Shown here piece by piece: positions 40,763 through 64,000 of a stretch of DNA of 64,000 nt. Origin of the DNA: an uncultured virus (IMG/VR IMGVR_UViG_3300044733_004038) (taxonomy: Duplodnaviria > Heunggongvirae > Uroviricota > Caudoviricetes). The DNA is taken from the IMG/VR virus record IMGVR_UViG_3300044733_004038; one strand, given 5' to 3'. A program made the translations under genes and the position numbers. The notes beneath the pieces were generated by a model. It was not told where the DNA came from. It made no database searches and saw only the letters and a program-made list of their open reading frames with translations. Each line of letters begins with the position of its first letter. The first letter of the stretch is position 1.

Positions 40763-40825
40763 TTCCAGAGAATGTAATATATAAAATAAGAAAAGTAAGA
40801 CACAATACAAACTACAAAGGAGAAA

Positions 40826-42383: not shown

Positions 42384-42552
42384 TGCTCGCGGCTGTCAAA
42401 CGCGCAATGCTGTGGCTGTGGCAGCCGGCGCCTCGAGCGAGGCTAGAAGAAGAAAAAGAAGAAGATCTGTGGTGGTTTTACATAAAGTAATCACTTGTTT
42501 AAGTTTCCAGAGTTTGTTATAATTAACTTGTCAACTACGAAAGGACAAACAA

Positions 42553-42957
42553 ATGACAGCAGTAAGCAGATCACTTGCGCAGGAAATTACTAACGAGCTT
42601 GAAAAAGCTGCAGTGGCAATCTTCGCAAAACATGGTCTCGAGCGAGGCAAAGTCTCCATAAAGTACGGACAACTTTACTCACTCAAGATTGAAGCTCAGC
42701 CAGTCGAGACTGGACCAAATGGAGTCAATCTCGCTTCAGTAGAAGCGACAGATTACATTCGTTTTGGTTCGATGTACGACTTGCCGGAAGGTCTTCTTGG
42801 AAAGACTTTCTCAGTCAATGGAAAAGAGTATGCGTTTGCGGGTATCGCGGCTTCGCGGTCGAAGTACCCAATTTACGTACGTGAGGTTGCGACTGGGAAG
42901 CATTCATTCTTCCAAGAATCAGTCAAGCGTTACTTCACCCCAGTAGGGGTGAAGTAA
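42553..42957 (+). CDS. Cassette hypothetical protein
   Basis: Repeat promoter and RBS; RSKYPI motif. Confidence 0.75.
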   Translation: MTAVSRSLAQEITNELEKAAVAIFAKHGLERGKVSIKYGQLYSLKIEAQPVETGPNGVNLASVEATDYIRFGSMYDLPEGLLGKTFSVNGKEYAFAGIAASRSKYPIYVREVATGKHSFFQESVKRYFTPVGVK

Positions 42958-43196
42958 TGCGCATCGCTAAGCAGCAGCATTGGATGCAGCATGCGGCGTG
43001 CGCCGGCAAAGGAGATTTGTTCCATAACGAGAAATCGCGTATAGTCACGCGGCAGGCCAAGGTCGTCTGCGCTGGGTGCTTAGTCAGGCAGGAGTGTTTG
43101 GACTACGCGCTAGACAACGAACAGATCGGCGTCTGGGGCGGACTTACTGGTAATGAGCGGCGTAGGCTGCGGCGCACTGCACGCCGAACTCGTTAA
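42957..43196 (+). CDS. whiB: WhiB family transcription factor
   Basis: W..HAAC...VCAGCLVRQEC...GVWGGLTGNERR. Confidence 0.92.
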   Translation: MRIAKQQHWMQHAACAGKGDLFHNEKSRIVTRQAKVVCAGCLVRQECLDYALDNEQIGVWGGLTGNERRRLRRTARRTR

Positions 43197-43264
43197 GTCA
43201 GTCGCAGAATCTATCTGGAGAACGTGGTATACTTAACAACTACTATTGTCTAAAAGGAGTACCA

Positions 43265-43465
43265 ATGAACGAAGCAGCCGCAGAAGAAGAGGAAAGCGGT
43301 GGCGCTACAGATCGCAACGAGCGCTTGCCAAAACGAAAAGATAAATGGAAATGCCCAAAGTGTGGCGAGACTGTCATTCTTCATGTGAAAGTATCTGAGC
43401 CGCCAGTGTGCCACAATCCGAAAGAGCACACGTCAACTGGAGTGGCCATGGAACTAGTTAAGTGA
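43265..43465 (+). CDS. Zinc-ribbon protein
   Basis: WKCPKCG...C....H. Confidence 0.7.
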   Translation: MNEAAAEEEESGGATDRNERLPKRKDKWKCPKCGETVILHVKVSEPPVCHNPKEHTSTGVAMELVK

Positions 43466-43647
43466 TCGATGGTTCAATCGATGTTGTATGGCGTCTTCTT
43501 GCGCTGGCAGAACGCAATGGACTTGGTCCGTCCGCGCCTGTGATGAGAAACGCAGCTGAAGAGATACAAATGCTGCGGACTAAAGTTGAAAGCCTAAATC
43601 AAGAACTCGAGCGCGTGCGGACTGAACGCAACTTTGGCGCGGTGTAA
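43462..43647 (+). CDS. Coiled-coil hypothetical protein
   Basis: AAEEIQMLR motif, GTGA-coupled. Confidence 0.6.
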   Translation: MIDGSIDVVWRLLALAERNGLGPSAPVMRNAAEEIQMLRTKVESLNQELERVRTERNFGAV

Positions 43648-43691
43648 ATAAATAGCCAGCCGGTTTTTAGTCGGCTGGCCGATTATTTATT
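43646..43691. terminator. Bidirectional terminator
   Basis: AAATAAATA-GCCAGCCGG/TCGGCTGGC-TATTTATTT between convergent genes. Confidence 0.7.
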
Positions 43692-43693
43692 TG

Positions 43694-43945
43694 TTATTTG
43701 CTGTGAAGCGCGGCGTCGATGCGCGGATTATTTTTGAGCAAGTCGACGATGAAGTCGCAGTTGGCAGCGAGGTATTCGTAGTACTCGTTGCTGTTGACGC
43801 TGTTTACGCAGTAGCTGTCGATGCCGTTTAGGTTGCCGATGTGCGATATGGCGTACGGGTCGCCGTAGTAGTTAAACGTGACAGTAGTCAAGTATTCAGG
43901 TTCGTGATGGATGTTGATTATTTGGTGTGTTTGTATGTTTGTCAT
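43694..43945 (-). CDS. Leaderless cassette protein
   Basis: Minus-strand repeat promoter, ATG 6 nt downstream; MTNIQTHQII... Confidence 0.7.
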   Translation of the reverse strand: MTNIQTHQIINIHHEPEYLTTVTFNYYGDPYAISHIGNLNGIDSYCVNSVNSNEYYEYLAANCDFIVDLLKNNPRIDAALHSK

Positions 43946-44022
43946 GTAATCAATATAACAACTCTGGAAACTGGAGTTAGCCAGCCGGTTTGGCCGGCTG
44001 GCTGACTTACCATTTACGAAGA

Positions 44023-44271
44023 TTAAACTTCGTAAGCTAGAGCGTATCCCTTGTCTCGCTTTGCGTACACTTTTTCGTACGCGGCTGACATTGCTGCTTG
44101 GCCTGAGTGATACACTTGCACGCTTGACTGGCGGTTGATCTTCTCTGCCATGCCCCACGAGCAACGCAACACTGAACCATCTGCGATTACCTCGTAGACT
44201 TTCTTCTTGCCATTCTGACCTCGTCCCATTGGGCCGATGTCGCTTCCTTTAAGCAAGCACCATTTTTTCAT
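44023..44271 (-). CDS. WGR-domain-like protein
   Basis: KKVYEV...CSWGM...Q...AYEKVYAKRDKGY; repeat promoter and RBS. Confidence 0.7.
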   Translation of the reverse strand: MKKWCLLKGSDIGPMGRGQNGKKKVYEVIADGSVLRCSWGMAEKINRQSSVQVYHSGQAAMSAAYEKVYAKRDKGYALAYEV

Positions 44272-44413
44272 TTTCGTCCTTTCGTCGTTACCAGCGTTGT
44301 GCTGATGAGATAAATATATCATCTCCGGAACTAGAGCGGACTCTGACTAAGCCGGCCTACGACTTCAGTTCCGGAGATGATACATTGTATCTATCAACGA
44401 CGAAAGGATGAGC

Positions 44414-44584
44414 ATGAGAACGTTAAATGACGCTCTCGTCGAGGTACAGATCGGTATCCAAGACGCGAAAGCCGATTACCCGGATCTGGGCGAAGACGAC
44501 ATCGTTGCGGAGGTAGTTCGCAATGTCGCGTCATCGTATCCGATGACAATCGCGTGCGAGCTGCTTCGACGCTACGGGCATTGA
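44414..44584 (+). CDS. Cassette hypothetical protein (56 aa)
   Basis: Repeat promoter and GAAAGGA; MRTLNDALVEVQIGIQDAKADYP... Confidence 0.65.
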   Translation: MRTLNDALVEVQIGIQDAKADYPDLGEDDIVAEVVRNVASSYPMTIACELLRRYGH

Positions 44585-44649
44585 TTCCAGAGAAGTTAAT
44601 ATAATTCTGTCAGCCAAAATGGTTGGCACTTACGAAAGGACGAAATGAA

Positions 44650-44874
44650 ATGGCAATGACAGACGAAGCACTCTCGACTGTTCGAGAGAGCAAAGGCGCG
44701 TTCAGAGGTTACATGCTCTACGGCAAAACCCTTGAACTTTGGTTCGCAAGCCCGACTGGTGACTCGAGCGATTCCGTCATTTTAAAGATGGAATGCGAAA
44801 GCAACGAGCAGGCTGCGGACATCGCGGCGGTACATCAACGTGTCTGGGGTCACTCAAACTCGTACGCTTATTAG
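44650..44874 (+). CDS. Cassette hypothetical protein
   Basis: Repeat promoter and RBS; SPTGDSSDS. Confidence 0.7.
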   Translation: MAMTDEALSTVRESKGAFRGYMLYGKTLELWFASPTGDSSDSVILKMECESNEQAADIAAVHQRVWGHSNSYAY

Positions 44875-44983
44875 TTAGATCGCTGGCGCCCGGGAATCGT
44901 CGCCCGGGCTGCTAAGCTTTAGGGAACTCAGTTCCAAAGAAGTTAAAATAGTACTATCAACTACAATGACGAAGGAGACTTAA

Positions 44984-45241
44984 ATGACGAAAGCACGTAA
45001 AATGTTTTTTGTTGCCCTGGCAGCAGTTGCGGCTGTAGGCTTAGTCAAGGTCGCGCAAGAGAGTGGCAAGTACACTTGCAACTCGCCGGCCGTGACAGTG
45101 CAGGAAGGCCAGACGCTACACGGCATCGCTCAGGCAAATTGCTCAGGCAACGTTGTAAATGCCATGGACGACTTAGTTCTAAACCTTGGCACGTCTACAA
45201 TCTACCCTGGGCAAGAAATTCAGCTGCCAACCCAGGGCTAG
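44984..45241 (+). CDS. Membrane-anchored LysM protein
   Basis: TM helix then VTVQEGQTLHGIA...IYPGQEIQLP. Confidence 0.85.
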   Translation: MTKARKMFFVALAAVAAVGLVKVAQESGKYTCNSPAVTVQEGQTLHGIAQANCSGNVVNAMDDLVLNLGTSTIYPGQEIQLPTQG

Positions 45242-45373
45242 ACTGTCTGCACAGGCACGCACTGCGTTTGTGAGTCACTTCGCCGGCTGGAATTGAAAAG
45301 TGGCTGGCTGAGGTCGTGTAAATGATCTGAGCGGTTGCAATTGTGGTATATTAAAATTGAAAGTGAGGAACAA

Positions 45374-45655
45374 GTGACAAAAAATCAACCAGGAACGTTT
45401 GCGGCTATCTTTTTAAGTTTAGCAATTGCTATTCCACTGATTGTTATTCCGTTTGTTGGAGAAACAAGTCTCGCAGCCGGCATCGTCTTCATCACGAGCC
45501 TTGGGCTGCTGCTGCCAGCGGTGCACTTCGCAACTGTGTGGTCTGTCAAGCGTTTTGCGCAAAAAGATTCAAAAACCTTACTTGGAGTAGTAGCTCCTAA
45601 AAAAGATGCGGATCAAGGTGTACTTTATGACGAAAATGATATACCATCGATCTGA
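45374..45655 (+). CDS. Membrane protein
   Basis: GAGGA RBS with GTG start; two TM helices. Confidence 0.6.
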   Translation: MTKNQPGTFAAIFLSLAIAIPLIVIPFVGETSLAAGIVFITSLGLLLPAVHFATVWSVKRFAQKDSKTLLGVVAPKKDADQGVLYDENDIPSI

Positions 45656-45659
45656 CGCT

Positions 45660-45797
45660 ATGACAAAGGAAGAAGAATGGTCAATGAGTTACTTACAAAG
45701 ACGAAACGCGGAGCTAGAAATAGAGAACGCGTTGCTGAGAAAGAAACTAAATGACTTCAGCCTTATCGAGCGAACTAATGAGTTTGATCGTGAGTAG
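45660..45797 (+). CDS. Small coiled-coil protein
   Basis: LQRRNAELEIENALLRKKL. Confidence 0.5.
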   Translation: MTKEEEWSMSYLQRRNAELEIENALLRKKLNDFSLIERTNEFDRE

Positions 45798-45912
45798 CGA
45801 AATGCTACTCGTCGAGGCGGAGGAGCTTATCGCACGCTCCCGAGCTCAGTTGGCAATGACGCCAACTGACGAGCCAGTGCGGCACAAACAACAAACAACG
45901 AAACGAGGAATA

Positions 45913-46092
45913 ATGTCAACTCCAACTCCACAAGCTGCAGCGCAGCTTTACGCAGAAGGAAAGCCAATTGTAGAAGTAGCTCAAGCTTTGGGCGTAACCT
46001 ACGGCAAGGCCCGTAAACTTATCAATGAAGCAGGCACTCCAGTTCGCGATGCTTCGTCGCGTCTCAAGGGTCGCACTCGCCGCAAGGCCTAA
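45913..46092 (+). CDS. HTH DNA-binding protein
   Basis: GAGGA RBS; LYAEGKPIVEVAQALGVTYGKARKLINEAGTPVR. Confidence 0.8.
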   Translation: MSTPTPQAAAQLYAEGKPIVEVAQALGVTYGKARKLINEAGTPVRDASSRLKGRTRRKA

Positions 46093-46253
46093 TGAACTGG
46101 CGTTCACGTTTTCGTGACGTTATTTGGACGTCGGTAGTGGCAGCAGGCTGCGGAGTAGTCTCAGTCGTTTCTGCCATTGCCGGCGCCAACACACCTGTGC
46201 CGATAGCCTTTGGGTTGGCTGGACTGATTGCTGTACGGTTGAACGATCAGTAG
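46092..46253 (+). CDS. Small membrane protein (53 aa)
   Basis: TAATG-coupled; MNWRSRFRDVIWTSVVAAGCG...; two hydrophobic segments. Confidence 0.6.
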   Translation: MNWRSRFRDVIWTSVVAAGCGVVSVVSAIAGANTPVPIAFGLAGLIAVRLNDQ

Positions 46254-46308
46254 ACTCGAGTTCCAGAGTTTGTATAATGTATATACCAACAACGACAAAA
46301 GGACAAAA

Positions 46309-46677
46309 ATGAAAACGCAACTCAAAACTGACACCTACGAAATCACGCTTACCGACATCGACAACGAAACTGTCAGCTTCGACGCAAAACTGTCACTCGC
46401 CTACTTACTTACAACTAAGTCCGGCATCGACGACCCAACCGAAACCACTGAGTTTTTCAACAACTTCAGCCACGACTACAACGGCAACGTCTTCGACTTC
46501 GTCAATATCGGCTTTTCAGCCGACGAAACACTTAACTACGGCGTACGCTACGACTACGCCGGTTCAGACTTCTGCGACGACTTCGACGACTGCATATCGG
46601 CATTCGGCAAACCAATCATCGACTTCATCGACGCTCACTGCAAACTGCTTAACATTCCCTTCTACCCAAACCGCTAA
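46309..46677 (+). CDS. Highly acidic cassette protein
   Basis: Repeat promoter and RBS; D/F-rich. Confidence 0.75.
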   Translation: MKTQLKTDTYEITLTDIDNETVSFDAKLSLAYLLTTKSGIDDPTETTEFFNNFSHDYNGNVFDFVNIGFSADETLNYGVRYDYAGSDFCDDFDDCISAFGKPIIDFIDAHCKLLNIPFYPNR

Positions 46678-46784
46678 ACTCGAGGTTCGGCCGGCCGGCC
46701 ACAAACTGGCCGGCCACTCGAGTTCCAGAGATGATATATTTATCTTGTCAAGCAAACAAGCCTGACAACGACGAAAGGACAAAA

Positions 46785-47090
46785 ATGAAAACCATGATTA
46801 AACCAGAAATTGGAATGGGAGCATCCGTCTCATTCTGCGCCGACACGATTGCGATGACTGTTATCGCGGTCAGTGAAAACAACAAAACAGTGGTCGCCCA
46901 ACGCGACAACGCTGTTGCAACCGGTGCGCCAATGAGCAATCAGTGGATTATCACACCAAATCCACAAGGCGAAACAATGACGTTCACGCTTCGCGCGAAT
47001 GGCCAGTACGTACTGCAAGGATCCTCGATGAGAGGCGGCCTCAAGCTCTACGTCGGCGAGCGCCACGAATACTACTGCTACGAATTCTAA
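46785..47090 (+). CDS. Cassette hypothetical protein
   Basis: Repeat promoter and RBS; PEIGMGAS...FTLRANG. Confidence 0.75.
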   Translation: MKTMIKPEIGMGASVSFCADTIAMTVIAVSENNKTVVAQRDNAVATGAPMSNQWIITPNPQGETMTFTLRANGQYVLQGSSMRGGLKLYVGERHEYYCYEF

Positions 47091-47225
47091 TTGAATTCGA
47101 GGAGCCGGGCCGGTTGGGGCCCGGCTCTTCAAGCAGTCTTCTCAACTCGAGTTTAGTTGAGCATTTTCCAGAGTTTATATAATTTAATTGTCAAGCAAAC
47201 CCGCTTGGCCCGACTGAAGGACGTT

Positions 47226-49189: not shown

Positions 49190-50605
49190 ATGGCCAAGAG
49201 CATCATGGAAGAGCTTGCTAAGTTGCCGCGCGAAGAGCGTGACAAAGTTCTCGACGGAATCGACCCAGAGCTTCTTGTGTGGGACTGGAAACTCTGGGCA
49301 AGGCCGGAACAAGTGCCACCGCCGGGAGATGACTGGTCAATATGGATGTACCTCGCTGGCCGCGGTGCTGGTAAGACGCGGTCAGCTGCGGAGTGGGTTC
49401 GTGATAGAGCTAAGGTCACAAACATGGGCCAACTTCGCTTTGCCCTTGTCGCTCGTACTGCAGCCGACGTTCGTGACGTAATTGTTGAAGGCGAATCTGG
49501 TATCATTTCTGTTTCGCCGCCAAGCGAGCGCCCACTATACGAGCCATCGAAGCGCCGTCTGACTTGGCCCAACGGAAATACGGCTACTTGCTTTACTGCT
49601 GACGAACCCGACGGCCTTCGCGGTCCTCAGTTTCACTACGCCTGGTGCGACGAGATTGCGGCGTGGCGTCAGTCGCCAGACGCTGCGGGCATGACGTCGT
49701 GGGACAACGTTCGAGTTGCAACTCGTCTTGGCGCCAATCCACAAATCATCTGCACTACAACGCCAAAGCGTGTGCCAATGCTGTACGGCTTGCTGAACGA
49801 GGCAGAAAAAACTGGGCGCGTTGTCGTGTCACGAGGTTCGACACTTGACAATGCGGGCAACCTTTCAAGCACCTATCTTGACGCAATCACAGGCGTTTAC
49901 GAGGGCACTCGGTTGGCAGCTCAAGAGCTCTACGGTGAAATGCTTAGTGACATCGAAGGCGCGCTGTGGACTATCGAGCTGATTGAACGCGCCCGGGAAA
50001 AACAACTGCCGCTTGGCGCGCCATTGCGCTGCATCGGCGTCGACCCGTCCGTAGCCGAGAATCCGCGCGACGAATGCGGGATTGTTGTTGTTGCTTCCAC
50101 AGGCGAACGTGACTTGTACAAGCGTCATTCATGGGTTCTCGAGGACGCGTCACTTCTTGGCGCGCCAGACCGCTGGGCCAATACGGTAGTTCAAATGGCG
50201 CGCAAGTGGTCGTGCCCTGTTGTAGCAGAAGTAAACCAAGGCGGCGCACTAGTGCGGAATGCCATCAACACAATCGACCCAACGATCAAAGTATTTGAGG
50301 TTCATTCAAAGGTCGGCAAAGCCTTGCGTGCTGAACCAATCACACTTGCCTACGAGCAAAACCGCGTGCATCACGTCAATTATCTTGCGGACCTCGAGTC
50401 GCAGATGTGCGCATGGATTCCAGGTGAAGGCAAGTCACCAGACAGAGTTGACGCCTTAGTTCACGCACTTACTGCTTTGCTAATCAAGCCACCTGCGGGC
50501 TTCCTCGGAGGAACTATCACAGCCAAGTCGTTGGCGCACAGACGCTTGCCAAGCTTTAGGAACGGCAATGGCCGCGGCGGTGGCCGTGTGTTCTCGCCTC
50601 GCTAG
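49190..50605 (+). CDS. terL: Terminase large subunit
   Basis: Walker A AGRGAGKT, LRGPQF, Walker B WCDE, TTTPK, nuclease GVDP and SPDRVDALV. Confidence 0.93.
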   Translation: MAKSIMEELAKLPREERDKVLDGIDPELLVWDWKLWARPEQVPPPGDDWSIWMYLAGRGAGKTRSAAEWVRDRAKVTNMGQLRFALVARTAADVRDVIVEGESGIISVSPPSERPLYEPSKRRLTWPNGNTATCFTADEPDGLRGPQFHYAWCDEIAAWRQSPDAAGMTSWDNVRVATRLGANPQIICTTTPKRVPMLYGLLNEAEKTGRVVVSRGSTLDNAGNLSSTYLDAITGVYEGTRLAAQELYGEMLSDIEGALWTIELIERAREKQLPLGAPLRCIGVDPSVAENPRDECGIVVVASTGERDLYKRHSWVLEDASLLGAPDRWANTVVQMARKWSCPVVAEVNQGGALVRNAINTIDPTIKVFEVHSKVGKALRAEPITLAYEQNRVHHVNYLADLESQMCAWIPGEGKSPDRVDALVHALTALLIKPPAGFLGGTITAKSLAHRRLPSFRNGNGRGGGRVFSPR

Positions 50606-53052: not shown

Positions 53053-54780
53053 ATGGGCGTCTTCAGGCGCAATCAATCAATAGCACGAACACGTCGCACA
53101 AACGCTACTAATCCGCAGGTATTGTCATCTTCGCTTATCGTGCCTTCTGGATACTCACCAGCTATTTCAGTTCCATATAACGCGCCGCGCGGTCTTACAG
53201 CGGCTGCCGCACAGGTAAGCGTAAACAATAAGAATGAAGCAGAGATGTTCAGGCAACGTCGCTCTGCTGGTTCTAGCCAATGGCAGTCTGAAGCCTGGGA
53301 GTACTACGACGCTATTGGAGAAATTAAATACGCTTTTAACTTAGTTGGCTCAGTCGTGTCACGAATTCGTTTGCACGCAGCAGTTGTTGAGAACCCAGCA
53401 GAGATGCCTGTCAACGTTCGTTCAGCCACTAAGGTGGACGCTGCACTAGCCGCGGCAGCAGAACGCGCGCTATCGCGTCTTGACTCTGCTTACGGCGGCC
53501 AAGCTGGAATGCTTCGAGACGCAGCGTTGAATCTTAGCGTTGCAGGCGAGTGCTATCTCGTGCAGATGCCAGCGCGTCCCGGGCACAGTATTCCAGAGTC
53601 ATGGGACATTCGCTCAGTAGACGAAGTGTCGCTTGACACGCGCGGTAACTACGTCATCTCGCCTCGACGAGAGTTGTCTGGTCAGGACGCTACACGCAAA
53701 GGCGGAATTAAAGTTCCAGGAAGTGCGTTTGTTGGCCGCATCTGGCGCGCGCATCCTCGCTACAGCGACGAAGCAGATTCATCGCTTCGTGGACTGTTAG
53801 ATCTCTGCGCTGAACTTATGCTTTTGAATCGCACGTTCCGTGCAACTGCGCGGTCACGATTAAACGCAGGAGCTTTGTATTTGCCAGACGGACTTAGCGT
53901 CGCTGCTAATCCAGATCCTGACTATCCTTACGACACGGGCTCAGATTTTGAGTCAATGCCGACGCCTGAAGAGCAACAAGACGAATTTGAAGACGCGCTG
54001 ATCGATGCTATGACGACGCCGATCCGCGACGAGGACTCAGCAAGCGCTGTTGTACCGTTGATCATTCGCGGCCCAGCAGAGCTTGGTGACAAGATTAAGC
54101 AGTTCAAGTTCGAGCGTTCGTTCGACCCGTCACTTGCTCAGCGAGCTGACCGTGTTCTTGAGCGTATTCTTCAAGGCATCGACATTCCAAAAGATGTTGT
54201 TACCGGAATGGCAAACGTAAAGTATAGCAACGCACTTCAAATTGATGAGTCGTTGTATAAGGCTCACATCGAACCGTTGATGCTGCTTATCGCCGACGCG
54301 CTGACAGTTGTCTATCTGCGTCCATACTTGATTGCTAATGGATTTGATCCAACGGAAGTTTCACGAATTGTCGCTTGGTACGACCCATCGCAGGTATCAA
54401 CTCGTAATGACCGCGCTGCAGACGCTGACAGTGGATTTGACCGTGGTGCAGTTTCATACGATACTTGGCGCCGTGCTCATGGATTTAGCGAGGCCGACGC
54501 ACCAACAGCTAAGGAAGTCGCTCTTCGTATGATAATCGACAAGGGCGTAATCTCTCCTGAACTTACTCAAGCTGTGCTGACGGCGATCGCGCCTGACGTC
54601 ATGGACGCTGCAAGAAGCGCACAGCAAGCTACGAGCGTCGCGCCTGTGCCGTCTGCACTACAGCAGATTTTGCAGGGCGCGCCAGAGACAGAGACAGCGC
54701 AGCCGAGTGCTGCCGAATCGCCAGTAGAGACGCCGACACCAGAAAAGACGACAGAGCCGACGCCAACAACAGAGGTGTAA
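53053..54780 (+). CDS. Portal protein (mycobacteriophage cluster B-like)
   Basis: WQSEAWEYYDAIGEIKY...SRIRL, NLSVAGECYL, RIWRAHP, RSRL.AG.L and SASAVVP; position after terL. Confidence 0.82.
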   Translation: MGVFRRNQSIARTRRTNATNPQVLSSSLIVPSGYSPAISVPYNAPRGLTAAAAQVSVNNKNEAEMFRQRRSAGSSQWQSEAWEYYDAIGEIKYAFNLVGSVVSRIRLHAAVVENPAEMPVNVRSATKVDAALAAAAERALSRLDSAYGGQAGMLRDAALNLSVAGECYLVQMPARPGHSIPESWDIRSVDEVSLDTRGNYVISPRRELSGQDATRKGGIKVPGSAFVGRIWRAHPRYSDEADSSLRGLLDLCAELMLLNRTFRATARSRLNAGALYLPDGLSVAANPDPDYPYDTGSDFESMPTPEEQQDEFEDALIDAMTTPIRDEDSASAVVPLIIRGPAELGDKIKQFKFERSFDPSLAQRADRVLERILQGIDIPKDVVTGMANVKYSNALQIDESLYKAHIEPLMLLIADALTVVYLRPYLIANGFDPTEVSRIVAWYDPSQVSTRNDRAADADSGFDRGAVSYDTWRRAHGFSEADAPTAKEVALRMIIDKGVISPELTQAVLTAIAPDVMDAARSAQQATSVAPVPSALQQILQGAPETETAQPSAAESPVETPTPEKTTEPTPTTEV

Positions 54781-54782
54781 CA

Positions 54783-55565
54783 ATGTCAACTGAGCCAATT
54801 GATCTTTTAGATTCGTATCAACCAGTTACCGCCGCAGGGCGCGGTCCTTGTTGGGACGGCTATGTTCAAGTTGGAATGAAAAAGAAAAATGGCAAGATGG
54901 TCCCAAACTGTGTGCCTAAAGACGCAGCTACATCTCAAGAATTTGCAAAGTCTCGTCGAGCTCCTAAGAAAGATCGTATCTACGGTTCTAAGAAGAACAA
55001 GCCAGGCTCGGCAGCAGGTGGCAAAAAGATTACGTTCTCTGCTAAGACAGAAACGGCGCTACGCAACAAAGTCAAAGAGCACAATGAAAAAGCTCCAAAT
55101 GGCCGAAGAGCAACGATGGCGCAACTTAAGGCAGTCTATCGTCGCGGCGCTGGAGCATTTTCAAGTTCGCATCGTCCAGGCATGACAAGAGACCGCTGGG
55201 CAATGGCTCGTGTAAACGCGTATCTTCGACTTTTAAGATCTGGACGACCAGCTAATCCAAACTACAAGCAAGACAACGATATTCTGCCAAGCGGTCACCC
55301 TAAATCATCACGAAGTAAGACATCAATCACGGCTTCTGGACTTCTTGACGTCGAGATCAAAGATGAAGCAGATTACGCTACACCAGAAGATGCGATATTA
55401 GCTTTTGCTGAATTTTCTGGTCAAGGCTACGAAATTATCCCGGCGCTTCGCGCCGCGTGGGTTCGTGCTGTGCGAGCAGACGAAAGTCCGTACATAAGAG
55501 CTAAAAGACTTGCTGTTGACTTGTACAGCAGTATTGACTCAGACCTGTTACCAAAGAAGAGATAA
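54783..55565 (+). CDS. Head-module basic protein
   Basis: PCWDGYVQVGMKKKNGKMVPNCVP motif and LKAVYRRGAGAF...WAMARVNAYL domain. Confidence 0.75.
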   Translation: MSTEPIDLLDSYQPVTAAGRGPCWDGYVQVGMKKKNGKMVPNCVPKDAATSQEFAKSRRAPKKDRIYGSKKNKPGSAAGGKKITFSAKTETALRNKVKEHNEKAPNGRRATMAQLKAVYRRGAGAFSSSHRPGMTRDRWAMARVNAYLRLLRSGRPANPNYKQDNDILPSGHPKSSRSKTSITASGLLDVEIKDEADYATPEDAILAFAEFSGQGYEIIPALRAAWVRAVRADESPYIRAKRLAVDLYSSIDSDLLPKKR

Positions 55566-55576
55566 AGTAGGTAAAC

Positions 55577-58500
55577 GTGACTAAGCACAATAAACAAAAG
55601 AAACGCAGCTATCAGTATAGTCACGCGTTTGCTGACCTGCCATTGACATATCAAAAAGCTCTAAAGGGTGCGATCATGGATATGGTCGTCAGTGCAAACT
55701 CAGAGCTGCAAACACATCGTCAGATTTCACCGTACTCTGCTGTAATAGCAGCTTCACGATCTCTTCAAACATCGTCTTCAAGTGCTAAGCCTGCTGCACG
55801 AGTTTTTGCGGCTATACGAGCTGTAAATTCATTTATAAACCTTTCACGAACTGGAAAGCCTGGTGTAGAGCGTCTGTCTAACACAGATCTTTTGCCAGTC
55901 GCGCATCCGCTTTCTACTCGTTCACACACGATGAATGAAGCGTCACTACGCGCTGCGCGTGCACAGTGGCTTGCCGCTGATCCACGAATTGACGATAACT
56001 TACGAAATCTTGTCGCAGCAGCGTACTCGCAGACTCCAGGTTCTGTCGAACATCGCCATGCGTTTACACGAATATCAGTACTTCCAGTAGGCGCTATTCC
56101 ACGCGACATTAGAATCGACGCTGATTTACAGTTGACACCTATCATTGCAGTTCTTGGTCTCGGTGGAAACTCAGACGCTGCTAGAAGTCTTCGTGCCAAG
56201 CTTCAACGTCGCGACCGCAAAGGCCGTTTTGCTGAAATGGGCGGCGGCTGGTCGTTCAAGTTACGTCTGCCTGACGGACTGTTCAAGACGGTGTCGGGTC
56301 GTGTTGTTGGCGCTTCAGGTACTGACGCAATTGAGATCGAGGTAACTGGAAGCAAAGATCTTGACGACGGCGTCTACACTATGCCATCTGCAAAGGGTGA
56401 GTCAGTTAAAGCTGTTCTTCCTACAAAAGCTGTAGAAGAACTTCCAGACCGTGATGATGCTATGGACGATGTCTATGTAGACTCAGCAACTCTCACGCGC
56501 AAGGATGCTCCTAGCGGTTGGAAGCAATTAGGCAAAACGCGACAAGTGGGCCGCACGTCTTATTCTGAATACACAAGCGATGACGGCTATACAGTAAAGC
56601 GCGAAGCACGACCTAACGCGGCTGGCACAGGCGTTGACTACGGCTACTCAGTGCGACGAATGGAAGCGACTGACACTGATCCGTTTGCAAAAGATAAAAA
56701 AGTAATGCGCTCATGGAGCGAGGTTCAAAAAGCTGTTCTTGCTGATCAAGACGACTACAAGCAAGATCTTGAAGCTCTGTCAACACCAGCAGACGAGCCA
56801 CCATTCGCTGTACCGAACACAATTCCAAAGGGTAACGGAGTAAGTATCTCGTTCCCACTTGCTGAGTACGAATATGATTTAGAGACTTTTGCTGATCAAG
56901 TTAAGAGAGCTAATGATCTTGGCGGATTCGTAGAAATTGACACAACACCAACTCTAGAAGGCGCAGATGCAATAGTTGTCACGTTCAATAAGCCGCGTCT
57001 TACACCAGCAGAGGCTAATGCGTTCCTTGGCGGCCCAGGGCGCGACGGAGCATTCGACGCTAGGTTTGAAGACGACAGCGAAGGCTCCGAGCGTGAAGAG
57101 CTGTTTGACGAACTCACTAAAGGCGCTCCAGGCGAGCCACCAACTGGCGCCCCAGGCGAGCCACCCACAGGCGGAGGTCCTGGTAGCCCCGAGCGTGACG
57201 AGTTCCTAAGAAACACAAGTGGATACAACATTGGCAACATTGATGGCGACGAGTACGAAGACCTCATTAGAAACATTGATGATAATGATTCGTTTAATCG
57301 TTCTGAAAAGAAAGCTATTGTCAACGCTTTTGAAGAGCGGCAAGACAAAATGGACGCGGCTAAAGAAATTGAAGATTCTGATGATCAAGACGAGGCGATG
57401 GAAAAAATTGCAAATGACTATTTTGCAAAAATCGCTGACATACTCGGCTACGACGACGAAGAAATTGCGCGTGCGTTTGGCGGAACAACCGAAGGCCCGG
57501 GCGAGCCACCAGCCGGCGCCCCAGGCAAGCCACCTACAGGCGGTCCAGACGAGCCAGACGACTACGGCAAATCTCAAGAGATTGTAAGCAAGCTAACAGA
57601 AGCGTTAGAAGAAAAAGGCGTAGACGTTGATAGTCTAACAGACGATGTGCTTGATTATCTAAACGATCAAGCTTCGCAAATAGAAAATGGCGAAACGTCT
57701 GTAGAAGATGCTGTTAATGCATTTGTAGATAGATGGGGAGACGAGCTTGATCTGCCAACTGCCGGCCCAGGCGAGCCACCGTTTACATCACCAGAAGCTG
57801 CTCGAGACATTCTTGACGAAGGCGCACTTACAGCGGAAGGAATTCTTACAGACATTGATGATGCAGATCTCGATGACTTAGACGACGACGATGCGAACAT
57901 TCTTGAAAAAATCAATAAGCTGTCGGACTCTGCTAGAGACGCGCTAGACAACATAGACCCAGAGGGCTCGCAGCTTAACGATATTTACTTCGATCAAGCT
58001 CGCGCTGACCTTGGAGAAATGGCAGAACTTCTCTCTAACGCGACTAATGCAGACATGCAAGACGCCGGTTCTGTGCTCAAGGAAGCAGTTGATGAGTATC
58101 TCTCTCTTCCAACTATTGATTTTAGTGGTAGGCGTGCAGAACTTGAAGTCGCTGCTGAGCCTTCGGCGCTAGACGGTGTAGTTAGCGAAGTAAAAGCGTT
58201 ATTCGACTCTTATAACAGTGGAGCTGTCGATGCAAGCGAAGTTTTAGATCTACTTGGCGTAGCTATTGACGACGTGCCAAACAACGATCAAATCTATAAC
58301 AGTCTGAAAAAGCAAATAGAAAACGTCGAGCTTCGTGGTTTCTCTATAGAAAAAGCTAAGTCCAACGCCGAGAAATCTATTAGAAAGTTAGCCAGTGAAG
58401 AAGGAGCAGTGCCGTACCTTACTGCAGAAAAAGCTCCTAGTACGCCTGAGACTAACGATCCAGTAGATCAATCATTGTTCGATGAAACGTTTATCACTTC

Positions 58501-61500
58501 TGACGATTCGTACAAACTAAATGTGTTCGAGCAATACAACCCACGCGGACGTGTAGACCAAGACAGCACAGACTACACTGATGATCCTCAGATTTTAGCG
58601 AATAGTTTTACTGCAGAAAATCTACAGAAAGCTCTTCGTCAAGCGTTGGTACCGTCTAGCGATGGTGACGTTGCGATCGGACTTGGCTATTTGCCATTTG
58701 ACGGTGGCGATGAAGCAGTTCCAGCAGAAGCTTTGTATGAATCACTTGATTTTGCTGGAATCGACTCCGACATTGTTGTCGCTGGCATCTACGACTCCGC
58801 GTTACCTGAAGGCAGTGAAACAAACGTTGAGCGCATCACTATGCAGCGAGACGACCTTGACAAGATCGGTGGAGAAGACTTTAACCCGGCTGACATCAAT
58901 ACTGCACGCGATTGGGAAATCAAGCAAGCGATCAAGCGTAATGGCGAGCTAGCAACTCCGCAACGCGCAGCGCTTGCTGTGGCGCAGATGACAGACGCTG
59001 CGAAGAATGAAGAAAAGAATCCAAGCATTAAAGAAGTTGCAGACGATCTTATTAACCGTCAAAATGATCCAAACTTAAACGAGTACAGCGCTGAAAATCT
59101 TGGAAATGTATTAGACAGCTATATGCCGTGGTCGTTTAGTGACTCAGCTGATGAACGAGAAGCTTTTAGAGGTTTCTGGGGAATGCTGATGAGTATCGAC
59201 GGTGGATCAACAAACGATATGGACGACAAGCGACCAGTACAAAGCACTAGCGGCTTCCGTCGCGCAGTCTATGAGTCTGTTAAACGTCAAAGCGGCGGAG
59301 ATGAAGAAGTCGCGCTAGCAGAGTACGACAGGCTGATTAGTGAGTACGGCGGGTACCCGGAGTGGACTACAGGAAAAGAAGCTATCTCTGACGGAGATGC
59401 TGACATATTCTCAGATCAATCTTCAGCTGGAGCGTTTTTCCGTTTGATGGCCGCGTCCGCTGAAAAGAATGATGTTCGCCTTCATCGTTACATCGACGTG
59501 AGAAAAGATGACCCGGCACTTCAGCAGTACCTAACTCCTGGCGTAGTTCTGCCTATTGACGCTCGCTCATTTACAACTAAAGATGAAGCAGCTGAGGATA
59601 TCGTGTCGCTGCTGAAGTATCCTCCAAACAGCGAGACAACGCATATTGTGTTTGAGATACAGCCAAATGAGGGTACTTCAATCTCGTTCGCGTCTGTGTC
59701 TTGGTTTTCAGGAGAAGCAGAGCATATTGCTTGGGGTAATTACGAAGTAGACAGCACTCGCAGAGTTGAAATGGGTGGACGAACAGACTTGACTGTCGTG
59801 AGTTTGCGCCAAGTTTCAGCTTCTGGCGTTGACGCTGACGGTGGTGCAGCTGACTCAGATATTTTTGGACCAGGTGACGACGCAGCAGTTGACACACCAG
59901 CCAAGCCAAACGTCGCAAGCTGGGACAAAGTTGGACCGCAACTCGGTTCAAACCTCGGCGGAACGTACGAAGACCCAGATGGTGACATCTACTACGTAAA
60001 AGAATCTAAGTCTCTCAAGCACGCAGAGAACGAAGCTCTTGCGTCTGCATTCTACAAAGAACTAGGCGTAAACGCTGTAGACGTTCGCGTAGGTGAAGCA
60101 GACGGCGCACCACGTACAGTGTCACCTATTGTTTCAACAACTGGTGAAACTCTTGCTGATCGACTAAATGACGGTGAGTTCATTGATAAGATCCGCGAAG
60201 ATTTTGCAATTGACGCGTGGCTCGGTAACTACGATGTCGCTGGCCTCGTGTACGACAACATAGTTGTAGATAACGATGGAAATCCTCTTCGTGTAGATCC
60301 GGGTGGCGCACTGCTGTTCCGTGCTCGTGGCGCTGAAAAAGGCGACATGTTTGGCGACAGCGTAGGCGAGATTGATACTCTTACAGATCCGGACATCAAC
60401 CCATCAGCATCTAGAGTCTTTGGTGGAATGACTGAAGAACAGCGCAAAGCGTCAGCTCAAAAACTGCTGGACATCACTCCTCAAAGAATTGATCAAATAG
60501 TTGATTCAATCGTCACAGATCCTGGCATGGCTGAAGGTCTCAAAGATCGGTTAAAGAAGCGTCGTGCTGACGTTCTAGACAGATTTGACATTGAAGACTC
60601 TGTACTAAATATGCCAGAAGTTGCTCAGCGGCCGACAGCTCCAGCAGACAAGAGTCCTGAGTCTATCGAAGCATTTAAAGATGAACTTGCTCGTTTTGCG
60701 ATGGACAAAGCAATCGCTAAAGGTTGGAATTGCGAAGGCGGACTAACGTCTGCAGCAACTAATCCATGCGATCTGCCTTCTGTAAACGAGCTAATCGCAG
60801 AAGCAACACCGACAGACGCTGAACTTGCTGAGCCAAAAGTACGGCAACTACCAAGCGATGAAGAAGTTAGCAATGCGTTTGACGTCATCTTTGACGATAT
60901 TGAAACGTATCTTTCTAGCGACTGGGGTCTTGAAGGCAGTGATAAGTCTAAGTACAAGAAGACTCGTGCAAAGATTGAAGATATTCGCGAGCGCTACGAC
61001 GCCGGTGAAATAACTCGTGAAGAGGCAGCAGCTGAACTCGCCGCTCTTCGTGATGAAATTTCAGCAAGCGGCGGTGAGCCAGTTGCAAAAGAAGCCACAG
61101 CTGAAGCGATTGATCATATAATCAAGAACTTAGATGGCACGATCTACGATCCTGTTGTCGTCATCGACAAAGATCTTCCACCGCCTGGTAGCGGACTAGG
61201 ACTTTCAAAAGACAAAGTCACACTGGTAAAACCAGGAATGACAGTTAAGTCTAAAGACGGTGTGACGTACGTTGTTCATCGCTATGATCCATCTAACTGG
61301 AACTACGTCTACGTCAAGCCAACAGACGGTAGCAAGGAAAAAATTAAGTCAACTAAGACTCTTGAAATTGTTGGTGGAGAAGGTGGCGGCGGTGGCACGC
61401 CTACAGCACCGGAACCGTCTGGACCTGAACTCCCAAAAGCTGAAGCCCCGAAAGGGGCTCCCAAAGCTCCTGAAGTTCCGTTTCCAGACAACATGCCTCT

Positions 61501-63337
61501 AGCTCCTAGAGCGCCTGAACCTCCAAAAAGTAAAAAAGATAAACAGCAGGGAGTAGTTGGACCAGGCGTTGAGCCAGTAATTATTGAAGAAGCGTTACCA
61601 TACACTTCTTCAGGAATACCTGGCACGCCGTCTCTTGCAGATGCGTTTGCGTTTGTAGCTTCAGACGAGCCGAATGCAGCAATTATTGGTTCTTACGCGG
61701 CGATAGACTCGACTGACATAGAAGACATGTCAGTTCGTGTAACTAGACTACGCTCTCTTGAGACGTCTGAGCAAATAACTCGAATGAGATACAAGCTCAC
61801 AGCTTGGGCTGGTGAACAATTGTATAAAGATGTACAAGATCTTAAACGCAACGAGTACACAATAACTAATGGAGTAGCACTCAAAGAGATTAGTCGAAAA
61901 GATGCTGCAGTCCCAGCTTTAAAGCCAGATACAAATGTTTATAACAATTGGCGCCACGGAACAACATATGAAGCAACACTACCTAACGGCGTAAAAATTC
62001 AATTTTTCCGTGGAGCGCAAGGCTCTTACACAGACCATGTCTTTTCACGAAGCGTTGAGGACTACGATGAAGTAGTTAATGCCTTAAACAACTATGTAAT
62101 CATAGATGTCCCAGACGGCGTGTCGCCAGACAGCGTGCGCTCAGCATTTAATATTGCTGGCGTTGTTGACCCACGCCCATCGGTAGAGCAAGATTTTCGC
62201 GTTCTTATTGAAAATCGGCTTATGAGCGTGCTTGGTGGAAAAACAAATGCGTCAAGAAATGAAGCTAGACCAGAAGTCAGACAAGAGATTCTCTCTGAAG
62301 TAAAAACTAAATACGGTATTGGAGTTGAAGACGTCTACGTTGGTGTTGGCGCCAATGGCCGTATCGAGATGCGAGTTTCTAAAGAAAAAGCAGCAGCTTT
62401 GGCAAAAGAAGCTAAAATTGAAATTGCAGAGCATAATTTAACTGTGTCTGCTGGGTACCGCCCTGACCCAGAACTTGCGGCCAAAAAGATAGCAGACATT
62501 ATCGTTGGGCCAAACAGAGCACTTATGTCGACGTTGGCAAGATGGACCGAAGGCGTCGGCGGCTCGGGTCAGTCTTCAGAAACTGACATGGCCACGGGCG
62601 GTGCAGACTACGTATTCTTCTCGCCTAAAGACATGACTGTAACCTCAAGTATCGGCTACGGCGTCAGTGACGCCAGTGACGCTACAGTGACATTTGACGC
62701 GGTTGATCTGTTCACGCGACTTGATTTCTATGCCAACTACGTCGATACTTATGGCGCTAGATCTGAAGAAAACGACAATCTTAAGAACGCTGCTCCTGGC
62801 GGCTATGAGCTGATGTTCAAGGACAGAGTTAGCACTGATATGCTAAAAGACATCGTTGTTCACACAAGAGTAGTTCCATTTTTGATTGAAGAACTCAAGA
62901 ACCGCGGAATAACTGAAATAAACGGAAGGTCTGTTGACGAAGTTGTGACAGTTGGCGGTCAAGGTGTAGTTATGGAAAAAGAAGGCGCAGTTAAGAAGTT
63001 CCAAACAAAACTAGATGAAAATCTTAAAACCAGGTTTGGAGAAGATTTTGGTGGCGCGAAAAAGTACAAAGACTGGCTAAATGAAGATCCATCAGGACGG
63101 GCAAAAGAATACGCTCCGCCAGTAGATGAAAACGCGGTCATTGTTGCAGTCAAAGACCTGAACAATGAAAAACAAGAAAGAGTCATCGTTCGTCTTACTA
63201 ACGGCGCGTATCTTTCGTACACCAGGTACACGGGAGCTATTGGCGCACCGTTTACCTATGAGTATCAAGAAATTGAAAACGATTTCCCAGGGTGGACGTA
63301 TCTTACTTCAGATGAACAAAGCAAAGGATCTAACTAA
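55577..63337 (+). CDS. Giant acidic multidomain head-associated protein with VIP2-like ADP-ribosyltransferase, kinase-like and second ART-like domains
   Basis: QRRDRKGRF motif; LHR...RSFT...GEAEHI; GSNLGG..YYVK..NE..DAWLGNYD..N..RVDPGG; H...GGADYVFF...YELMFK. Confidence 0.8.
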   Translation: MTKHNKQKKRSYQYSHAFADLPLTYQKALKGAIMDMVVSANSELQTHRQISPYSAVIAASRSLQTSSSSAKPAARVFAAIRAVNSFINLSRTGKPGVERLSNTDLLPVAHPLSTRSHTMNEASLRAARAQWLAADPRIDDNLRNLVAAAYSQTPGSVEHRHAFTRISVLPVGAIPRDIRIDADLQLTPIIAVLGLGGNSDAARSLRAKLQRRDRKGRFAEMGGGWSFKLRLPDGLFKTVSGRVVGASGTDAIEIEVTGSKDLDDGVYTMPSAKGESVKAVLPTKAVEELPDRDDAMDDVYVDSATLTRKDAPSGWKQLGKTRQVGRTSYSEYTSDDGYTVKREARPNAAGTGVDYGYSVRRMEATDTDPFAKDKKVMRSWSEVQKAVLADQDDYKQDLEALSTPADEPPFAVPNTIPKGNGVSISFPLAEYEYDLETFADQVKRANDLGGFVEIDTTPTLEGADAIVVTFNKPRLTPAEANAFLGGPGRDGAFDARFEDDSEGSEREELFDELTKGAPGEPPTGAPGEPPTGGGPGSPERDEFLRNTSGYNIGNIDGDEYEDLIRNIDDNDSFNRSEKKAIVNAFEERQDKMDAAKEIEDSDDQDEAMEKIANDYFAKIADILGYDDEEIARAFGGTTEGPGEPPAGAPGKPPTGGPDEPDDYGKSQEIVSKLTEALEEKGVDVDSLTDDVLDYLNDQASQIENGETSVEDAVNAFVDRWGDELDLPTAGPGEPPFTSPEAARDILDEGALTAEGILTDIDDADLDDLDDDDANILEKINKLSDSARDALDNIDPEGSQLNDIYFDQARADLGEMAELLSNATNADMQDAGSVLKEAVDEYLSLPTIDFSGRRAELEVAAEPSALDGVVSEVKALFDSYNSGAVDASEVLDLLGVAIDDVPNNDQIYNSLKKQIENVELRGFSIEKAKSNAEKSIRKLASEEGAVPYLTAEKAPSTPETNDPVDQSLFDETFITSDDSYKLNVFEQYNPRGRVDQDSTDYTDDPQILANSFTAENLQKALRQALVPSSDGDVAIGLGYLPFDGGDEAVPAEALYESLDFAGIDSDIVVAGIYDSALPEGSETNVERITMQRDDLDKIGGEDFNPADINTARDWEIKQAIKRNGELATPQRAALAVAQMTDAAKNEEKNPSIKEVADDLINRQNDPNLNEYSAENLGNVLDSYMPWSFSDSADEREAFRGFWGMLMSIDGGSTNDMDDKRPVQSTSGFRRAVYESVKRQSGGDEEVALAEYDRLISEYGGYPEWTTGKEAISDGDADIFSDQSSAGAFFRLMAASAEKNDVRLHRYIDVRKDDPALQQYLTPGVVLPIDARSFTTKDEAAEDIVSLLKYPPNSETTHIVFEIQPNEGTSISFASVSWFSGEAEHIAWGNYEVDSTRRVEMGGRTDLTVVSLRQVSASGVDADGGAADSDIFGPGDDAAVDTPAKPNVASWDKVGPQLGSNLGGTYEDPDGDIYYVKESKSLKHAENEALASAFYKELGVNAVDVRVGEADGAPRTVSPIVSTTGETLADRLNDGEFIDKIREDFAIDAWLGNYDVAGLVYDNIVVDNDGNPLRVDPGGALLFRARGAEKGDMFGDSVGEIDTLTDPDINPSASRVFGGMTEEQRKASAQKLLDITPQRIDQIVDSIVTDPGMAEGLKDRLKKRRADVLDRFDIEDSVLNMPEVAQRPTAPADKSPESIEAFKDELARFAMDKAIAKGWNCEGGLTSAATNPCDLPSVNELIAEATPTDAELAEPKVRQLPSDEEVSNAFDVIFDDIETYLSSDWGLEGSDKSKYKKTRAKIEDIRERYDAGEITREEAAAELAALRDEISASGGEPVAKEATAEAIDHIIKNLDGTIYDPVVVIDKDLPPPGSGLGLSKDKVTLVKPGMTVKSKDGVTYVVHRYDPSNWNYVYVKPTDGSKEKIKSTKTLEIVGGEGGGGGTPTAPEPSGPELPKAEAPKGAPKAPEVPFPDNMPLAPRAPEPPKSKKDKQQGVVGPGVEPVIIEEALPYTSSGIPGTPSLADAFAFVASDEPNAAIIGSYAAIDSTDIEDMSVRVTRLRSLETSEQITRMRYKLTAWAGEQLYKDVQDLKRNEYTITNGVALKEISRKDAAVPALKPDTNVYNNWRHGTTYEATLPNGVKIQFFRGAQGSYTDHVFSRSVEDYDEVVNALNNYVIIDVPDGVSPDSVRSAFNIAGVVDPRPSVEQDFRVLIENRLMSVLGGKTNASRNEARPEVRQEILSEVKTKYGIGVEDVYVGVGANGRIEMRVSKEKAAALAKEAKIEIAEHNLTVSAGYRPDPELAAKKIADIIVGPNRALMSTLARWTEGVGGSGQSSETDMATGGADYVFFSPKDMTVTSSIGYGVSDASDATVTFDAVDLFTRLDFYANYVDTYGARSEENDNLKNAAPGGYELMFKDRVSTDMLKDIVVHTRVVPFLIEELKNRGITEINGRSVDEVVTVGGQGVVMEKEGAVKKFQTKLDENLKTRFGEDFGGAKKYKDWLNEDPSGRAKEYAPPVDENAVIVAVKDLNNEKQERVIVRLTNGAYLSYTRYTGAIGAPFTYEYQEIENDFPGWTYLTSDEQSKGSN

Positions 63338-63340
63338 CTT

Positions 63341-63721
63341 ATGGCCAGAAAACTAAAAATAGCAGACTATAAGTCGTCAGAAACTATGTATCTTCTTGTG
63401 GAAGGTGTTGCAGTTTTAGATACGTCTATAGATGGCAAGCCTGCTGGATCGCGCCCTGTGTTCTCAGTGCGTCTTAGAGGAACTGCAGTTATGTGCCCTA
63501 TGTACTCTCGTACATCCGAGTACCCGTTACAATCTGATGAGGATCTTGATATAAACGAAAAAGAAGGAATAATAAAGTTTACATCGCGCGGTGCTCAGTA
63601 TACTATCCGCGCTTTTCAAGATTCTGACAGGTCTTGGTTTTTGTCAGGTTCTAAGAAGAAAACGGCGTCAGCTGAACAAATGGAAAAAATGTTTAAAGAA
63701 TCAATAGACGGCAGGTACTAA
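63341..63721 (+). CDS. Hypothetical protein
   Basis: Tandem ORF after the giant protein. Confidence 0.7.
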   Translation: MARKLKIADYKSSETMYLLVEGVAVLDTSIDGKPAGSRPVFSVRLRGTAVMCPMYSRTSEYPLQSDEDLDINEKEGIIKFTSRGAQYTIRAFQDSDRSWFLSGSKKKTASAEQMEKMFKESIDGRY

Positions 63722-64000
63722 ATGAACGTTGCTAAACAATGGCCAACAGAGATTAAAGAGAATGAGATTCTCTTCGCTGGTGTCGACGCTGAGAGCGCAA
63801 ATATCACCTACCTCGTGTTTTCAAGCCAAGAAAAAAAGAAAATGTACGTGCGTGCAGACGGTACTTGGCTGCCGATTATGATCGACGACTCCGACATCCT
63901 CAATGATCTTGAGGTATATCAAGTAACTTTAGAATTTATTCCAGTGTACGATAAAGCAGAGGCAGCTGGCACGACCTTAACTTCCGCAGACGCTGACGCC
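63722..64000 (+). CDS. Hypothetical protein, partial (runs off the window)
   Basis: MNVAKQWPTEIKENEILF..., open to the window end. Confidence 0.65.
   Translation, partial: MNVAKQWPTEIKENEILFAGVDAESANITYLVFSSQEKKKMYVRADGTWLPIMIDDSDILNDLEVYQVTLEFIPVYDKAEAAGTTLTSADADA

Follow-up and report, generated by a model that had tools for sequence, protein, structure and literature searches.

Enzymes that are delivered by the virion act before any phage protein is made and could thus pre-empt host defences; to our knowledge, few of them have been characterised beyond T4 Alt. The head-packaged effector with several enzymatic domains is an established concept, with precedents in T4 Alt and the polyvalent proteins (PMC5512222, PMC9503650; these and the papers below are cited for the parts of their text that were available). 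Here we describe a giant protein of 2586 amino acids (aa), encoded at positions 55577-63337 of a 64,000-nucleotide stretch of DNA from an uncultured caudoviricete (IMG/VR record IMGVR_UViG_3300044733_004038), which we refer to as the window; its features are on the plus strand unless stated otherwise. Judging from sequence, structure models and comparison with relatives, this protein is probably a virion-delivered polyvalent effector, as proposed in a first-pass annotation of the window, and we infer its packaging, its injection and all of its targets from the same material. In our literature search, the protein family, a head-linked DarT-fold ADP-ribosyltransferase (ART) and the pairing of kinase and ART were not described, with the limit that subscription papers and the supplements of PMC5512222 and PMC9503650 could list the domains. 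What appears to be new is the set of three enzymatic domains (two ARTs and a kinase) and the putative DarT-fold ART family, while the class of proteins is already known.

The gene is an intact open reading frame (ORF) with a GTG start and no internal stop. The short motifs previously listed for its enzymatic domains all lie at the places given for them, including LHRYID (aa 1302, nt 59480), RSFT (1330) and GEAEH (1379) for a first ART, GSNLGG (1457), YYVK (1472), DAWLGNYD (1546) and RVDPGG (1572) for a kinase, and PGMTV (1886), EHNL (2285), GGADYVFF (2341) and YELMFK (2410) further downstream. Since they contain residues that are near-invariant in homolog alignments, these motifs are beyond chance. 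The homolog set included at least 127 further proteins from two overlapping searches (the best 120 of 199, plus 35), and many rows in the alignments are close kin. By homolog coverage, the protein divides into five conserved modules (aa 25-400, 960-1415, 1445-1672, 1880-1935 and 1995-2460) with variable linkers between them; two conserved stretches, aa 25-400 and aa 1995-2275, had previously been overlooked. Relatives are up to 5,212 aa long, and extra domains in 16 chosen proteins comprise VIP2 ART (up to nine), DEDDh exonuclease, UvrD, Nudix, KTSC, GNAT, zeta-toxin and pentapeptide domains. At six loci, two giant genes stand in tandem or the modules are split across two ORFs.

Neither the whole protein nor any of 12 segments had a significant match in Pfam or PHROG, and PDB sequence and profile searches with the kinase, first ART plus kinase, C-terminal, SH3-like and N-terminal modules likewise gave nothing significant. 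The ESM Atlas returned no usable match, single-sequence locus scans recovered identical copies only, and the matches in BFVD were all uncharacterised (Pithovirus, E 9e-5; Tupanvirus; iridovirus 422L; Bacillus phage SP-15). The assignments below come from structure models, profile comparisons and residue conservation.

The first domain, ART1 (59084-59821; R1304, S1331, E1380 and E1382), has an R-S-ExE mono-ADP-ribosyltransferase fold, so that the R-S-E signature noted at about 59477-59815 is now well supported by structure comparison. The underlying model of aa 960-1680, which covers a helical domain, ART1 and the kinase, has a predicted local distance difference test score (pLDDT) of 88.5. Foldseek matched ART1 to the Vis toxin (E 2.7e-5), and the structure-search tool VIA (aa 1143-1414) to 6drh, an ART toxin of the type VI secretion system that we take to be Tre1 (Z 10.4, root mean square deviation (rmsd) 3.8, 153 aa), and to HopU1 (Z 8.6). 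The profile match to VIP2-like ARTs scores above 87 of 87 shuffles, and E1380 and E1382 align with the ExE of these domains. ARTs with an ExE motif modify arginine, and on this motif we assign ART1 to the arginine type. R1304 is conserved in 90/92 sequences, S1331 in 75/92 (Pro in 17), E1380 in 92/92 and E1382 in 90/92; the serine motif is SF[ST], not STS.

The second domain (59909-60592; K1475, E1486, D1553, N1561 and D1574) refines a kinase-like fold reported at about 59921-60590, which is well supported, to an atypical kinase of the CtkA/HipA/PI4K type. VIA (aa 1442-1674) matched it to CtkA (Z 16.6, rmsd 3.2, 209 aa), CotH (14.0), PI4KII (13.1) and HipA (12.1), with Fam20 also among the matches, and Foldseek to CtkA (E 4e-5). 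K1475, E1486, D1546, N1551, D1553 and D1574 are conserved in 127/127 sequences and N1561 in 126/127. The canonical catalytic loop of CtkA/HipA/PI3K-like kinases is D-R/G-H-x-x-N, whereas the N-x-D-x7-N loop found here (D1553-VAGLVYD-N1561) is without the usual His and three residues longer. The predicted kinase may act on a lipid or a small molecule, with which the fold alone would be compatible.

This kinase family comprises 497 viral stretches (80 kept) and 172 matches in prokaryote genomes (79 loci kept), and it also occurs in cultured Gordonia, Pseudomonas and enterobacterial phages. Among 82 kinase ORFs in bacterial genomes, the C-terminal ART described below (ART2) accompanies the kinase in 18 and an R-S-E ART in 21, with both in none. 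On a quick kinase tree, ART2 must have been gained or lost 11 times, with the starred branches forcing at least 4 of these events. At seven actinomycete loci, the same kinase family lies within proteins of 4,700-6,900 aa, and, like polymorphic toxins, the two that were scanned contain domains of the Scabin-like, glutamine deamidase, ART or S9 peptidase type. At two loci of related phages, a 245-aa kinase is encoded by a gene of its own just upstream of the terminase gene.

At about 62426-62863, where a possible second ART had been suspected, we found an ART fold that is moderately supported and that we refine to a DarT-fold H-Y-E ART (ART2, 62384-62974; H2286, R2322, S2333, D2337, Y2345, D2390 and E2411). 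The model of aa 1990-2470 has a pLDDT of 87.7 and a predicted template modelling score of 0.90. Among 48,161 chains compared by VIA, seven matches reached Z >=5, and all of these are ART-fold enzymes: the top four are DarT structures (Z 7.9-7.0, rmsd 3.3-3.6, 146-154 aa), followed by OspC3 (5.4), a Salmonella NAD/ARF1 effector that is presumably SopF (5.3) and Tpt1 (5.2). Foldseek also matched DarT (prob 0.57-0.90, E 0.05-0.16), and a weak profile match pairs E2411 with the catalytic Glu of DarT, with a score that none of 133 column shuffles reached, although one was near it. As the structure-search tool warns that Z <8 is common, and given the Foldseek E-values, the DarT case rests on the agreeing matches, the profile match and the H-Y-E triad. 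The Pfam family PF14487 (DarT) does not match ART2; it does match in enteropathogenic Escherichia coli. The triad is highly conserved (H2286 in 218/228, Y2345 in 211/228 and E2411 in 226/228 sequences), as are R2322 (227/228) and S2333, D2337 and D2390 (228/228 each). The domain family amounts to 364 clusters at 50% identity, and in the annotated phage collection its relatives were found in phage DSL-LC01 only.

Together with the head-linked CtkA/HipA-type kinase, the predicted DarT-fold ART makes two large unannotated families that are now defined with exact catalytic residues. We also considered that the giant protein could be a structural head protein with inactive relics of enzyme folds, which would agree with its long acidic linkers, with the Pro at S1331 in 17/92 homologs and with the longer, His-less kinase loop. 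Across sequences that are only 25-50% identical, however, catalytic residues are 93-100% conserved in each of the three domains, and we regard the relic explanation as exceedingly improbable.

The likely acceptor of ART2 can be approached through its two nearest structural relatives. DarT1 and DarT2 (PMC11543638, PMC11125620) are the best fold match, with the catalytic Glu aligned. DarT needs R51/R52 and an ARTT loop that binds single-stranded DNA, and DarT1 also needs D54 (PMC11543638, whose residue numbers we used for the mapping). No invariant Arg of ART2 is found at the sequence spacing of R51/R52, for which R2322 could substitute, and D2337 is at about the place of D54, judging by spacing. 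The segment before the catalytic Glu has 43-46 residues in DarT and only 21-24 in ART2. Furthermore, DarT serves host defence whereas ART2 would be phage cargo, and no Macro (DarG), NADAR or ARH gene was found in a search across the genome in which the controls were positive.

The next ART fold matches are the riboxanases OspC3 and CopC (Z 5.4 and 4.2; PMC11598138, PMC9239266). In OspC3, arginine ADP-riboxanation depends on D177 and D231 (PMC11598138). In the best local alignment, S2333xxxD2337 falls on T173xxxD177 and D-Y2345-VF on D-F186-VFF of OspC3, at a level that is not significant (Prob 0.2), and D2390 may correspond to D231. The E-x-H motif of OspC/CopC is absent from ART2, which has E2411-L-M. 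In the available text of PMC11598138 and PMC9239266, OspC3 and CopC have eukaryotic targets and a calmodulin cofactor, and riboxanation is described only for effectors that act on animal cells; a bacteria-directed arginine ADP-riboxanase is a quite improbable identity for ART2. The apparent lack of the DarT arginine, long loop and antitoxin, and the two invariant Asp residues that are possibly OspC-like, make the acceptor uncertain. We tentatively lean towards a protein; a nucleic acid is a lesser possibility, in which case proteins would not be the substrate of ART2, and NAD+ hydrolysis or another activity is unlikely. It is doubtful that phages have reversed the anti-phage chemistry of DarT, with ART2, as a capsid-carried DarT-fold enzyme beside a HipA-type kinase, ADP-ribosylating host DNA on entry with no antitoxin of known type. 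Since ART2 falls between the DNA-modifying DarT and the protein-modifying OspC-type enzymes, its substrate bears on the evolution of ART specificity.

The gene directly downstream (63341-63721) encodes a conserved 126-aa protein, a candidate partner or immunity protein. Following the model of MuF-type polymorphic toxins (PMC5576092), ART2 would kill or arrest recipient cells and the 126-aa protein would be its immunity factor. The 126-aa family follows 40/61 ART2-bearing genes and 0/64 kinase-only genes, and behind 15 prophage MuF-kinase-ART2 genes there is likewise a gene from a single family encoding 107-142 aa proteins. However, the correlation with ART2 possibly reflects lineage only, because a homolog of the 126-aa protein, gp83 of Microbacterium phage Pumpernickel, is encoded behind gp82, in which no ART2 was detected, and a comparison of the two downstream families scores within shuffles. 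The role of the 126-aa gene as an ART2-specific immunity gene is therefore undercut, and we consider the toxin model very unlikely for this locus.

Pumpernickel gp82-gp83 (locus L005, 14019-21333) has the same N-terminal anchor and downstream gene as the giant protein. The C-terminal kinase of gp82 is a different one, of the PI3K/HipA type and with the canonical loop DRHNWN, which makes the pair a cultured-phage example of payload exchange. The 15 prophage-like loci are mostly proteobacterial and encode the kinase with a DarT-fold ART, with MuF in the nine of them that were scanned; their 107-142 aa family is a candidate immunity family.

Turning to delivery, the giant gene lies between the portal gene (53053-54780; phrog_776, E 4e-104) and the genes for the maturation protease (genome 64444-68430) and major capsid protein (genome 69268-71256), both beyond the window, which bears out the head-module position assigned to it earlier. 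Of 80 viral kinase-bearing loci, 61 have a portal gene upstream, 51 have a protease or capsid gene on the downstream side and 72 have either; contigs that are truncated or nearly identical, and copies of this phage, are part of this set. The suggestion that the gene occupies the position of MuF proteins, which often carry toxin domains, holds for relatives of the kinase and ART2, which in unrelated prophages are fused to MuF; the giant protein has no MuF domain (PF04233). In a hand-picked subset of the 79 loci, PF04233 was present in 9/11 scanned kinase-ART2 prophage proteins and in 11/20 of all those chosen, plus one Phage_min_cap2. Moreover, gp129 of Yersinia phage fHe-Yen8-01, in which a kinase of this family is combined with a VIP2-like ART, carries the GenBank note 'phage particle associated protein'.

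The conserved N-terminal module (aa 25-400, 55649-56776) would act as a capsid-targeting anchor. It consists of a domain related to the 260-aa DUF5824-like head-module protein encoded just upstream (54783-55565), a QxRDxxGRF motif (aa 210-218, 56204-56230) and a further conserved domain, and had no match in Pfam, PDB sequences or the Atlas. The QxRDxxGRF motif is common to the giant protein, the maturation protease and a 270-aa head protein. A motif of this type has 3 matches in 9 head ORFs and 0 in other ORFs of >=200 aa (shuffle mean 0.011); written as RDxxG[RKQ][FW], it is confined to head proteins. The motif lies inside the first 400 aa of 113/132 full-length homologs, being near the start of many homologs and of Pumpernickel gp82; a literature search for it returned nothing. 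A second motif, h-[TVS]-A-[AS]-[GA], occurs 11 times in the head ORFs (window 53053-64000, genome 64444-71256) against 1.2 expected (0/1000 shuffles), with a pattern that was defined after the sequences had been inspected, and is a candidate maturation-protease site.

Based on these features, which are indirect evidence, the giant protein would be expressed late, be recruited to the prohead by the QxRDxxGRF motif, possibly be trimmed by the maturation protease and be ejected with the DNA into the host. There, ART1 would catalyse NAD+-dependent ADP-ribosylation of arginines and the kinase ATP-dependent phosphorylation, most plausibly blunting host defences, and ART2 would add a second NAD+-dependent modification. 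Within the linkers, lineages gain or exchange additional payload domains. Packaging and injection can be tested in cultured phages that have the kinase family (Gordonia phage Forza, gp78/gp80; Pseudomonas phage Dolphis, gp117) or the N-terminal anchor (Pumpernickel gp82).

Several points weigh against this proposal. The terminase of fHe-Yen8-01 is also marked as particle-associated, so that the note on gp129 is possibly lenient, and we found no paper on this phage. The putative cleavage motif is not kept at domain borders (7/113 before the RD motif, 13/132 after the kinase and 3/132 before the last module). A chain of 2586 aa is large for ejection and, as noted, is without a MuF domain. For ART2, the Z of 7.0-7.9 is at a level described by the tool as common, and the profile match to DarT spans 45 columns only (Prob 26). 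Size would better suit an enzyme that acts late in the cytoplasm, co-expressed with the head genes, and either blocks superinfection or shields portal and terminase assembly from host sensors. A late, immunity-type role has been proposed for the HipA-like kinase of Gratiaviridae located between portal and capsid genes (PMC8008677), and protection of the packaging apparatus is offered as an alternative for head-linked ARTs (PMC9503650). Such late action is nevertheless unlikely in view of the fusion of the same domains to MuF and minor capsid proteins, the motif common with the maturation protease and the particle note on a homolog, and we retain virion delivery as the preferred explanation.

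A packaged ART could also work as in T4, where Alt provides the example, by modifying the host RNA polymerase (RNAP) to read phage promoters; the first-pass annotation had named RNAP as a target and had linked it to unusual cassette promoters. The repeat TCCAGAG-N4-6-TATAAT is indeed present in 22 plus-strand copies among small genes (window 29229-47183, one mismatch allowed), which it precedes, several copies being followed by an AAAGGA ribosome-binding site, and in only 2 minus-strand copies in the whole genome. ART1 is of the Alt/VIP2 R-S-E type, and 3/23 SH3-like modules weakly match the CarD/TRCF RID family (best E 0.004). On the other hand, the repeats already carry a consensus -10 box, ART1 is absent from many relatives that retain the kinase and ART2, and an RNAP switch leaves three enzymes unexplained. 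The comparison of the SH3-like module with CarD/TRCF RID was not significant (2/125 shuffles were as high), so that a CarD-like RNAP binder is not supported, and no link that would support RNAP as the target was found. We therefore give an Alt-like promoter switch a low probability.

The module in question (61214-61381) is a small conserved beta module, probably SH3/Tudor-like; conservation confirms the module reported at about 61216-61375, and its putative SH3 identity comes from Pfam hits that are weak or below curated cut-offs, many of them of SH3/Tudor type. The remaining parts of the protein include a conserved helical domain (aa 960-1170, 58454-59086), recognised by homolog conservation and the model, and a conserved beta-sheet domain with a helical linker before ART2 (61559-62383), which had no clear fold match (best Z 4.4). 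Very acidic spacers had been described between the domains. Acidity instead peaks at aa 501-800 (27-30% Asp+Glu), upstream of ART1, in an acidic hypervariable spacer (aa 401-950, 56777-58426) of which about 290 aa are missing in one relative that is 96-100% identical elsewhere; the inter-enzyme linkers have 13-21% Asp+Glu, and the linker after the SH3-like module is Pro/Gly-rich.

The virus record is 131,575 bp long, has a 127-bp direct terminal repeat and is classed as complete; the window is its first 64 kb. Pfam scans covered the proteins of the window, and the second half of the genome was covered by four family searches and six head and tail ORFs. The host is likely a freshwater actinobacterium, with which two observations agree: the phage encodes a WhiB gene, and on the kinase tree its sequence falls inside a 62-row clade with many Actinomycetota loci (Shimodaira-Hasegawa-like approximate likelihood ratio test, 99). 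The head region also contains the gene for the terminase large subunit (49190-50605; Pfam and PHROG) and the start of a conserved 241-aa gene (63722-64000). At genome 64444-69252, the protease gene corresponds to one, two or three ORFs in relatives; it is fused to the 270-aa gene in many of them and split in DSL-LC01. Elsewhere in the window are genes for an Fpg glycosylase (10907-11704), a radical SAM/SPASM protein next to a GT61 glycosyltransferase (14069-15929), a TauD-like dioxygenase (18562-19341) and a subtilase (41139-42383), and a 1309-aa ORF on the minus strand with no significant Pfam match (20133-24062).

Phage DSL-LC01, which was assembled from a lake metagenome and is predicted to infect actinobacteria (PMC10611076), is a relative of this phage. 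Among 50,697 phage records, it alone covers the greater part of the giant protein (70% covered, 40% identity), and ORFs past the window match its capsid maturation protease and major capsid protein at 56-72% identity. Its protein WJZ48510 (3289 aa) is an ortholog of the giant protein, being 32-42% identical with the same modules and the same synteny and position. WJZ48510 is annotated as hypothetical, and the terms 'kinase' and 'ADP-ribos' are absent from the main text of PMC10611076.

In comparison with the kinases described so far, CtkA, HipA and CotH have the atypical fold in common with the family reported here, which is distinct in its N-x-D-x7-N loop and its frequent pairing with ARTs. 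The HipA-like kinase of Gratiaviridae (PMC8008677) lies, like the giant gene, between portal and capsid genes, while the T7 kinase, which disarms defences, is expressed early and belongs to another kinase family (PMC13645617). The kinase of polyvalent proteins was defined by the loss of a C-terminal subdomain (PMC5512222), whereas the C-lobe helices are kept in the present model. T4 Alt is likewise a virion-linked R-S-E ART, but a single enzyme with RNAP as its target, compared to two further enzymes here. MuF polymorphic toxins (PMC5576092) resemble the giant protein in their head-linked carrier and C-terminal enzymes, and the kinase-ART2 relatives are true MuF fusions; the giant protein differs by the three enzymes and the missing MuF domain, and kinases are not mentioned in the main text of that paper. 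The polyvalent proteins (PMC5512222, PMC9503650) are similar in overall design, since they are also large, multi-enzyme and linked to head genes, with variable domains that include ARTs and a kinase and with predicted co-injection, whereas in the present protein an R-S-ExE ART is joined in one chain to a full-length kinase of the CtkA/HipA type and to a putative DarT-fold H-Y-E ART.

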